The translations under genes and the position numbers were made by a program. A stretch of 54,841 nt of DNA, filler included, from Streblomastix strix (lineage: Eukaryota): assembly GCA_008636045.1 (NCBI GenBank). It is 2 parts of 2 records of this genome, joined end to end, with 100 filler letters (N's around TTAATTAATTAA, not from the genome) between each part and the next. Parts side by side here need not be neighbours in the genome. Positions count along the whole stretch, not along the records: positions 27,513 to 54,841 come from SNRW01000146.1; 1 more part is not named here. The stretch is one strand, 5' to 3'. Of this stretch, positions 28,171-31,100 are shown piece by piece (within the stretch, counting starts at the first letter, position 1; each line of letters opens with the position of its first letter). The notes under the pieces were generated by a model. The model ran no database searches and was not told where the DNA came from. It was given only the letters and a program-made list of their open reading frames with translations.

Positions 28171-31100
28171 TCAAGATTTTTCTGCTTATTCTAAGTATTT
28201 TTTGTGCATTGTATCGACATGTTAATAAAGAGCTGATTCCTTATCTGCAGTCTTATTTGACTTTCCATGATCATCATATTTGTGCTAATTTTTATGATCA
28301 ATTTTCAATTAAAGCTATGTATATGTCATATCAAATCCTTTACTAGCTTCAAATCCTCGCATGTGGGCCATCTCATACTCAATTGGATTTCGAATAACTT
28401 TTCTGACTTTTACACCATCAGGGAGCTCTTCATTGTTCCTGTCTTATTCTATATGTCGAATCTCGTTTTTAATCCAACCACGTACATGTGATGGTTACTT
28501 ATCATCATCTGCAATTGAACGCAATACCAATTGTGCGTTTCTTCGCCCATTTGATTTAAGTCTTATGTCTGATTCTATTACCTAACTTGCTGTATTTTCA
28601 ACATCTACAGAGTCTCTGTTTTTTTAATTTTCTGGACTTTAGATTTCCCAAGCATTATCTGACGATTCTGGAGTTGAAGTGAGGTGTACTCCACCAATGA
28701 CAATTCCCCCACCAGAAGGATAGCATATAGTTGCTGGAACTAAAAAACAAGCGTTTTCATTTGTAGAGAGGTTTTTATTGGGTTTAAGAATCCTTCCAAC
28801 TATTTCACATTTTGTTTAAAGTTATTTTTCAAGTGCATCAGCAATTGGTCTAGAATCCATATCATCAAGCCAACTATTTCCAATATGTTCATAATAATAA
28901 ATTCCTAATAGGTCTTATAGTGGTTTTTTATAATGATTTCTAATTTCATTATATTAATCATCTAACTTTCTTCTAATATCACTTTTTACATCATAAATTT
29001 CATCAGAAGTCCACTCATGTCCATAATTTTCCCTCTCAATCTCAAGAAATATCTCATCAACTTTGCTTTAACTTGGTTTAGGAGGAAGATTAAATTTTTA
29101 TCGATTTTAGTCCCACAAAGATATTACTTCTTCTCTTTTGATGTGGATTCCAAATTTAACAAAATATCTGGAAGCACATATAAGCGCTCGAAGTTTGTTC
29201 AGTTCTCGGAGACGAAGCAATTCAGGGAAATAATAACCAAACCTATCATAATTTTCTGTAAATTACCTTCCAAATTATACAGTAGATGAATCAGAATCTG
29301 CAATTTGAGCTTCTTCATCCGCATCATGAATTTCTCCATCAATGCTTCTCTCTAACTTTTTAACTTTAACTTCCATTTTACAATATCCCACTCTCAACGC
29401 AAATATATCATTACTTTCTTACTTCATTTAAATTGGAGCTTATCCAGCTTGTATCCATATTCGATGAATGCTGTCAAACTACTGTGACAATTACTATCTT
29501 GAACAAATTTGTGCAATATTTTATAGTTAAATTGTAAGCGGTTTTATAAGTTCGGACGTACTTCGATATGCAAACTCAGGACCTTTTATGCTTGCTTCTG
29601 TTCCTGTAGTTAAATATTTCAGAAGAAGGTCTGCATGAAGCATACATTCATATTCTGGAGTCATTCTTGATGGTACACGAGAAATAACTTTAGCTACATG
29701 TAGAGGTGAGTAAGGTTATAATGGTGATAGTAATTCAAGTGAGAAAGCAATATCGCCTGTGGGATTCAAGAATGAGTTAAATAAGTCTTCATCATCAAGC
29801 AGACAATCATTTGTAGACGCTAAATTATACGAAGGAACGACAATAAATTGAACCTTTGATTGTTCAATATCAATTCTAATTCCATCTACTCTCCTATATA
29901 TCCTATTATTAAATGATCTATTAAATGTCAATGCTTTTCCTGCAATTCGAAATCCATCTGTATCTCTTTGTATTAGAGGACAATTAATAGTCTTTTCCAT
30001 TTCTTCTACACTATATCCAGCATCAACTAATGTACTTGCAATACAATCTTTTCTCGATTTAATCTCGCTTTTTCCTTAAGTCATCATCTTATTCCTCATT
30101 TAAAATGCCTCATGCACAAATGCAAAATAATAAAGACGTTGAACAGAATAGACAAAAGAAAGACTATTAGGATATTTAGTAGTTGTAAGGAAATTTGACG
30201 GCTTTGATTGTTCAGTTAGGATATCATCTACTTGAATCTTCATGATCCTACAAATCTTCTATGATTGAATACACAAATAAACCGTGTCAAAAATACTATG
30301 GCAATATCCAAGAGGAAGCCAAGGAAATGCTTACATATTTGTATATAATAACTATATAATAATATGATATATATAATAATATATTAAATCAAATAAAATT
30401 ATCAAATAAATAAAAAGAAAAAACCTCACAAACAAACTTGAGCATCTTCCAATCATTTCGAGTATTGAGTTCTCCTGTCGCATGTGTAATAATAATAATT
30501 GCAGCTTAACAGGTGAAGTTTTATAGAAATGGACCATAACATCTAATTTAATCCACTAATCTCCGTATAAGAGCCAGCGATACAAGCATACATGCTTATG
30601 CTTTTGATTATTCACGCTTTCCTAAAACAATTAGTTAAACAGCAATATATATCATGCAGCTGACTTCAGCAGGGCCAAATCCAAGATCTTACACTTCATC
30701 AAGAGCATTGAATAAAGCTCTTATTACACTATTCAATTCATTACTATTTTCTACATAAACTTTGTGCAATTATTCTTCAATAGAAAGTAATACAATAGCT
30801 AGTTAGATGTCTGCGTTTAAAAGAACTATTATATTTTCTGATTTCATATATCTATCTGGATTATCTTCTGAAATCATATCAGATACCCATTCTTGCGCAA
30901 TTTGTTTCAAATCTATATATTTTCTTGATAGCATATAACCTGCTGCTTCAAAAGATTCTTCAGTTACAGATGGAATCAATTGCAATTATCCAATTGTTTA
31001 ACACATTATTTCATCAGTATAATACAACATCGATCGCATCAATGTTTATATACCAAGAAAAGGAAAATGTTTAATGATTTAGTTTCCAGCTAAAAGAATT

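Follow-up and report, generated by a model that had tools for sequence, protein, structure and literature searches.

Architecture of the locus

The window analysed is a stretch of 54,841 nucleotides from Streblomastix strix, and its minus strand carries a long gene that is read with TAA and TAG as glutamine (translation table 6) and ends in an Ntox8-type toxin tip. Exon B (28171..30351, minus strand) consists of 726 codons and a stop, its open frame 30351-28174 ending with the tip. Exon A (30434..32254, minus strand) comprises 607 codons, has its first methionine at 32098, and contains a weak C2H2-like motif at 31882-31817; zf-C2H2 matches in this exon (E 0.055-0.065) lie below the cut-off. 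The two exons are in different frames and are joined in phase 0 by an 82-nt GT..AG stretch (30352..30433, minus strand; GTTTGT..TATAG, GC 0.12; alternative donor at 30424, giving 73 nt). With its GT..YAG ends, its richness in AT, and the frame restored across it, the stretch 30433-30352 shows the marks of a spliceosomal intron, and it fits the oxymonad introns of the accessible text of PMC1501061 (section 6) in size, AT content, donor, and acceptor. The sequence-only reading had taken the intron as given; it stands as a likely spliceosomal intron, deduced from the frame switch. Exon A has no detectable resemblance to the N-terminal region of the family (alignment score -2.9, below shuffles), and the join of exons A and B therefore rests on the splice signals and one collinear paralogue contig.

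Upstream of exon A lies an in-frame TGA after codon 64 (32255..32257, minus strand), which is also present in the source contig and which the sequence-only reading does not mention, preceded by a 64-codon segment in the same frame as exon A (32258..32449, minus strand) that starts with the first ATG at 32449. A candidate intron of 141 nt (32344-32204, minus strand; GTAAGC..TATAG) would span this TGA. The protein has 1,281 aa when counted from Met 32098 and 1,351 aa if the 141-nt stretch is an intron. That the protein is long had been noticed before; the ~1,300 residues then assigned to the part upstream of the tip belong to the whole protein (~1,280-1,400 codons). Profile scans detect neither DnaJ nor FYVE in the upstream segment and exon A. 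Inside exon B, a possible second intron of 45 nt (30153-30109) covers a 20-residue insertion relative to the family and has no consensus donor; an alternative frame near 30110-30030 scored lower than the frame of exon B.

Directly upstream lies an intronless 670-aa gene in the same code 6 (33532-35562, minus strand), which has a P-loop and a helical stalk and is GBP/atlastin-like by eye. This GTPase-like gene yields weak matches only, none of them significant (Sey1_3HB, E 0.034), and has a diverged paralogue in a termite-gut metagenome run (X1). Between the two genes, a high-copy repeat (32377-33500) reaches a summed depth of 700-1,100 versus 24 in X1. Pfam scans of the window place hAT, reverse transcriptase, and KilA-N domains around the gene. 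A hAT transposase remnant (Pfam), a DDE-like frame recognized by eye, and a reverse transcriptase (RVT_1, E 1e-9) are found at 2386-4796 (-), 6349-7347 (+), and 24064-24933 (+). A broken Polinton/Maverick-like block extends over 42010-45462 (+), 48246-49811 (-), 50173-50760 (-), and 51371-52690 (+); it contains KilA-N by Pfam (E 5e-9) and motifs that we take to be protein-primed polymerase-like and packaging-ATPase-like. These neighbours, together with the termite-gut runs, bear out the eukaryotic setting first proposed for the gene.

The Ntox8 tip

The tip and its C-terminal tail occupy 28171..28560 (minus strand), with the final TGA at 28173-28171. Under table 6 this interval gives a 129-residue frame with seven TAA/TAG codons, just as it had first been quoted, and under table 11 seven internal stops cut the frame, making the domain invisible in the standard code. 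The Ntox8 profile (Pfam PF15545) matches residues 53-96 of the frame (28404-28273; profile positions 27-70 of 70) with E 1.2e-11 and 45 bits against a gathering cut-off of 25, which confirms the family membership suggested from sequence; this is the sole Ntox8 match among the 126 window translations scanned. Both family motifs are intact. Among 20 homologues, the H and the R of HxR (28365-28357) are present in 20/20 each, the first H of HxxxH (28296-28282) in 20/20 and its last H in 19/20, and all four residues are kept in the window tip. The reading of TAA and TAG as glutamine is supported as well, as TAG at 28287 stands opposite Gln in 20/20 homologues; TAA at 28311 does so in 13/20. Opposite the 19 TAA/TAG codons of the carrier core, Gln is the most enriched residue (two-fold).

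In the accessible text of PMC3482391, the nuclease activity of Ntox8 is a prediction only, its fold is given just as alpha+beta, and eukaryotic Ntox8 is tabulated for dictyostelids (Table 2). The AlphaFold model of the window tip (pLDDT 80) has the order helix-helix-strand-strand-helix, with HxR closing strand 1 and HxxxH located in the final helix. A strand-strand-helix unit whose first strand contributes a histidine and whose helix carries HxxxH is the layout of His-metal finger nucleases. The structural comparison that had been suggested ranks such proteins first, at scores short of significance: 20 of the 31 listed Foldseek rows, including the top six, are HNH nucleases, all rows having E>=1.4 and TM ~0.3. 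The top rows are colicin E9/E7 and the Cascade HNH, that is, three proteins in many entries, and a VIA search with the tip gave no match at Z>=5. The tip is likely a histidine-metal nuclease.

The carrier family

Upstream of the tip, exon B is built like the other members of a large carrier family. The conserved carrier core of ~290 aa (29182..30057, minus strand) contains HADxLLK, HRxWI, and FPELxRLxEL and is remotely DUF1598-like. It is followed by a helical stalk of variable length (28750..29181, minus strand; model helices 322-438), in which one paralogue contig is 306 nt shorter, and by the boundary motif C-x-W/L-V-P-A ... Y/I-G-G-V-x-L (28681..28749, minus strand), a predicted beta-strand pair (model strands 451-455 and 466-473) behind which the tips vary. 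A polar linker (28561..28680, minus strand) leads from this motif to the tip and takes the same place as the Gly/Ser/Pro-rich linkers of relatives. The model of core and stalk is confident (pLDDT 89.7, pTM 0.84) and matches a Tupanvirus J-domain protein with TM 0.74 and E 3.8e-25. Searches of the PDB by fold brought up no clear match for the core: the lowest E in Foldseek is 0.13, and the highest Z in VIA, 5.6, concerns the stalk only. By itself, this does not show a new fold. By sequence, the PDB holds no match for the tip, the core, the chlamydial domain described below, or exon A, and the ESM Atlas returned no usable match to the core of a homologue.

A phmmer search with exon B retrieved 683 proteins at E<=1e-3, of which 225 also reach 1e-10; the examination covered the best 150 of the 683. 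The best non-self match, P0003, aligns over exon B residues 42-702 and has the architecture DnaJ+FYVE+core+Ntox8; a Pfam scan of 37 relatives detected DnaJ in 14 and FYVE in 15. After removal of 21 near-duplicates from 204 core-bearing rows, 183 non-redundant rows were left, 122 of which contain the boundary motif. The 112 tips (>=85 aa) behind it form 42 clusters, 13 with at least two members, a figure that overstates the real tip types because some singletons are truncated or of low complexity. Tips named by Pfam are Ntox8, AHH, HicA, and, weakly, HNH; others are presumably colicin-E3-like, GIY-YIG-like, and ART-like. When 13 tip types on 83 rows are mapped onto the core tree, 26 changes are needed (minimum 12, shuffled mean 55): the tips are inherited, yet repeatedly swapped. 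The five Pfam-positive Ntox8 rows need four changes on this tree. Polymorphic toxins are characterized by a conserved carrier and a boundary motif after which the C-terminal toxin tips vary, and the window gene has this organization.

The carrier core has no Pfam or NCBIfam model of its own according to profile searches. A domain preceding DUF6531 and RHS in chlamydial proteins is homologous to it (hhalign 99.3%, E 1.4e-20), and one of eight chlamydial relatives matches DUF1598 (PF07643) at E 3.2e-4, below the cut-off. The window core does not match DUF1598 directly in a profile search, the link being two-step, and DUF1598 was not found in three genomes scanned, where the controls gave no signal either.

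Two further observations concern the wider family. Chlamydial genomes (L056-L063) encode ~1,550-aa proteins that consist of an RHS shell end, a variable segment of ~150 aa with a conserved NNC-type motif, the carrier core, DUF6531, and RHS repeats. This order, which looks like a circularly permuted Rhs toxin, occurs in 13/300 chlamydial genomes. A common His-rich beta tip without a Pfam name (cluster 0, 21 rows) is found in P0048, P0171, and P0016, which represent Tupanvirus and a 1.45-Mb contig, and in the chlamydial L044, and is thus common to giant viruses and Chlamydiae.

Copies in termite-gut metagenomes

One 4,660-nt contig of run X1, which may be the source of the sequence, spans the gene with 0 differences. 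In run X2, from a second termite-gut study, five near-identical pieces of 151-330 nt each lie within the gene; they contain three changed codons, all non-synonymous and from contigs of depth <3, and no near-identical piece reaches the TGA. Paralogue differences in exon B amount to 16 synonymous and 11 non-synonymous codons with 0 stops in the coding frame, compared with 7/21 and 3/26 (synonymous/non-synonymous), with stops, in the other two frames. Third positions hold 16/32 of the differences (p 0.04). Hence, the differences favour the coding frame of exon B. The paralogue contig is collinear over both exons and is 11 nt shorter across 30343-30955, a range that spans the junction. The second X1 paralogue, with the shortened stalk (matches at 29249-29180 and 28764-28719), continues for ~1,440 nt beyond the boundary motif with no match to the window tip at 80% and may carry another tip.

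Bacterial relatives and immunity genes

After 22 of 27 complete bacterial carrier genes lies a short ORF on the same strand, ~3 of these ORFs being not immunity-like. Among 16 downstream ORFs scanned, five match DUF2750 or Imm11 and are paired with Ntox8 or AHH, and 11 belong to no named immunity family. Locus L002 has the order carrier-Ntox8, DUF2750, orphan Ntox8, DUF2750; in L009, L010, and L030, an AHH tip is followed by Imm11. Ntox8 with Imm16/DUF2750 and AHH with Imm11 are known pairings (accessible text of PMC3482391, Tables 2-3). Orphan tip cassettes occur in L002 and, by eye, in L028 and L040; the window has none. As far as their sequences tell, the loci of the Legionellales-type relatives belong to the classic polymorphic-toxin kind. 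The chlamydial gene L044, which bears FYVE, is followed by no short ORF. Tandem arrays of near-identical small immunity-like genes stand behind the toxin gene in L012 (7568-8122), L014 (8325-9806), L013 (8279-9439), and L039 (10289-11212).

No immunity family was found among the 126 window translations, including frames of at least 50 aa in 25500-28300, a scan that a spliced or distant gene would escape and that meets a gap of N's at 27413-27512.

Distribution and trees

Relatives of the carrier span amoebozoans, a chlorarachniophyte, rotifers, a springtail, a tardigrade, Tupanviruses, and Chlamydiae. Named eukaryotic members are Clastostelium, Chlorarachnion, Didymodactylos, Rotaria, Adineta, Darwinula, Bradysia, Paramacrobiotus, and Folsomia, whose cluster carries Ntox8 on the carrier; the viral members are two Tupanviruses. 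A GTDB scan located 45 loci, mostly in Legionellales, Coxiellaceae, Francisellaceae, and unclassified Gammaproteobacteria, and in addition in Holosporaceae and Parachlamydiaceae. The core occurs in 25/203 genomes of the Legionella order and in 15/300 chlamydial genomes, two of the latter being strong. Two records titled as an archaeon and as Bacteroidia (L014, L031) have cores that are >90% identical or closely similar to Legionellales-type rows and are likely mis-binned. A word-indexed search confirmed 0/6,961 candidates with exon B and 1/54 with the tip alone (longer proteins), IMG/VR 0/57 candidates for the carrier, and JGI 0/109 with the window core and 8/56 with the alignment as query; a plasmid scan found no member of the family.

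In the core tree, 64 rows form a Legionellales-type clade, and the eukaryotic, viral, and chlamydial members lie among the other 119 rows. The window core is a long branch (1.7-2.3) among these 119, and an AU test on 50 rows does not reject its placement with the Legionellales-type clade (p 0.46). In the tip tree, 0/18 branches are starred. The phylogeny called for with the sequence-only reading singles out neither a donor nor a direction of transfer.

Proposed function and alternative readings

The reading towards which we lean is that of a carrier-plus-tip polymorphic-toxin protein, the Ntox8 tip of which, a likely His-metal nuclease, would be kept as a weapon against intracellular bacteria or viruses. 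The host of the gene would be an oxymonad-type protist; the genetic code and the habitat taken together suit an oxymonad such as Streblomastix (PMC1501061). Its lineage-specific N-terminal region would replace the J-domain/FYVE head of the relatives and serve in targeting or sensing, and core and stalk would tether the tip. By analogy, the tip would come loose or become accessible at the polar linker that follows the boundary strands, and would then cut nucleic acid via a beta-beta-alpha His-metal site. Because no immunity gene lies nearby in the window, safety of the host would come from tethering or a compartment and not from an antidote.

A broader proposal, which we regard as evenly balanced, describes a cross-domain toxin system. 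Herein, one DUF1598-like carrier with a new fold would deliver swappable nuclease tips, together with immunity genes in Legionellales-type bacteria, which would use them against competitors sharing their host cell, and without immunity genes in giant viruses, Chlamydiae, protists, and small animals, swapping being ongoing. The window gene would be the first member from a metamonad, its N-terminal sensor having been rebuilt. The bacteria, giant viruses, and eukaryotes that have the carrier family share amoeboid cells or guts.

It is unlikely, at a probability worth keeping in mind, that the family reading is right and the allele is a recently disabled copy, a pseudogene that is interrupted by a nonsense codon near its 5' end and yields no active toxin. 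The ALARxLQ motif found before the TGA repeats after it, so that the 64-codon segment looks formerly coding; the neighbourhood is rich in repeats, the window core is the long branch mentioned above, and a paralogue differs by 1 nt in 30055-30292. Nevertheless, 1,333 further codons are open after the TGA with all invariant residues kept, and the start at Met 32098 would by itself give the 1,281-aa protein. The candidate 141-nt intron could span the TGA, although this reading is weak because a donor-acceptor pair of this kind spans 55/500 and 193/567 coding positions by chance (11-34%).

Rather unlikely as well is an intact nuclease aimed at the nucleic acid of the protist itself, acting as a switch that, when triggered, would bring about suicide or an antiviral shut-off. 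Recruitment of toxin domains for eukaryotic cell death and antiviral defence is described in the accessible text of PMC3482391 (section 47). The N-terminus does not resemble a signal peptide (the first 64 aa reach a hydropathy of -0.18 at best), and there is no immunity gene among the 126 window translations; both would suit such a switch, but the bacterial relatives need immunity genes, which suggests the bacterial cytoplasm as a natural target. Many relatives moreover carry FYVE, a binder of endosome and phagosome lipids, though the window protein is without it.

That this lineage took up a single Rhs-type Ntox8 tip from a gut bacterium and joined it to a host protein, a version of the bacterial acquisition proposed in the sequence-only reading, is improbable. 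The tip is 36-48% identical to its Ntox8 homologues, many of which come from Rhs-type proteins, and with its unstarred tree a fresh swap of a bacterial tip onto the carrier is conceivable. Against a one-off capture onto a host protein stand the 500 residues upstream of the tip, which are the family carrier and no host protein. At least four other members (P0003, P0008, P0176 from Folsomia, and P0005) also have Ntox8 on this carrier, among the Ntox8-bearing members being one springtail gene and one gammaproteobacterial gene, and the P0008 tip shares the insertion after the second helix of the window tip. Since the carrier bears Ntox8 in these members, tip and carrier most likely arrived together.

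Contamination with bacterial or viral DNA, or an error of assembly, suggested by the gut-metagenome source and by relatives in bacteria and giant viruses, is hardly credible given the 68 TAA/TAG codons read as Gln across three gene segments, the difference-free X1 contig and the pieces from the second study, and the AT-rich GT..AG interruption of the gene.

The family provides an uncharacterised carrier domain of 290 residues for which the model is confident, a context for DUF1598, a catalogue of unnamed tips and candidate immunity proteins, and an Ntox8 nuclease prediction that is easily assayed.

Comparison with known systems

With the Ntox8 (PF15545) and Imm16/DUF2750 systems of the accessible text of PMC3482391, the window gene shares a profile match above the cut-off, intact HxR and HxxxH motifs, and the extreme C-terminal place of the domain. 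Those systems come with RHS repeats, whereas the window gene has a carrier core of the J-domain/FYVE family, belongs to a code-6 eukaryote, and has no Imm16 in the window. The predicted strand-strand-helix of the tip, in which strand 1 bears a His and the helix the HxxxH motif, resembles HNH or beta-beta-alpha-metal nucleases such as the colicin E7 and E9 DNases, although the structural match to them is not significant. Chlamydial core-DUF6531-RHS proteins have a homologous core, but one placed before DUF6531 and the RHS repeats. The same core, stalk, and boundary motif are found in the Tupanvirus J-domain protein A0A6N1NXY0 and the Folsomia candida DnaJ protein XP_035712158, both uncharacterised database entries; these start with a J-domain (plus FYVE in Tupanvirus), whereas the N-terminus of the window protein is unrelated.

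In the accessible literature covered, including text of PMC3710099, neither the carrier family nor DUF1598 was found described; the dictyostelid Ntox8 proteins of PMC3482391 may show the carrier architecture. Like the bacterial polymorphic toxins (Rhs, CdiA, LXG, MafB), the family combines a conserved N-terminal carrier, a boundary motif, and swappable C-terminal nuclease tips, and its Legionellales-type members have adjacent immunity genes and orphan cassettes. Unlike them, it has a carrier without a Pfam or NCBIfam model and without a solved fold found, it spans eukaryotes and giant viruses, and the window gene has neither immunity gene nor cassette at its locus. Eukaryotic toxins do not, for the most part, correspond directly to the bacterial polymorphic toxins (accessible text of PMC3482391, section 47). 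The carrier family looks like such a direct counterpart, with the same carrier and the same swapping of tips in bacteria, giant viruses, and eukaryotes.
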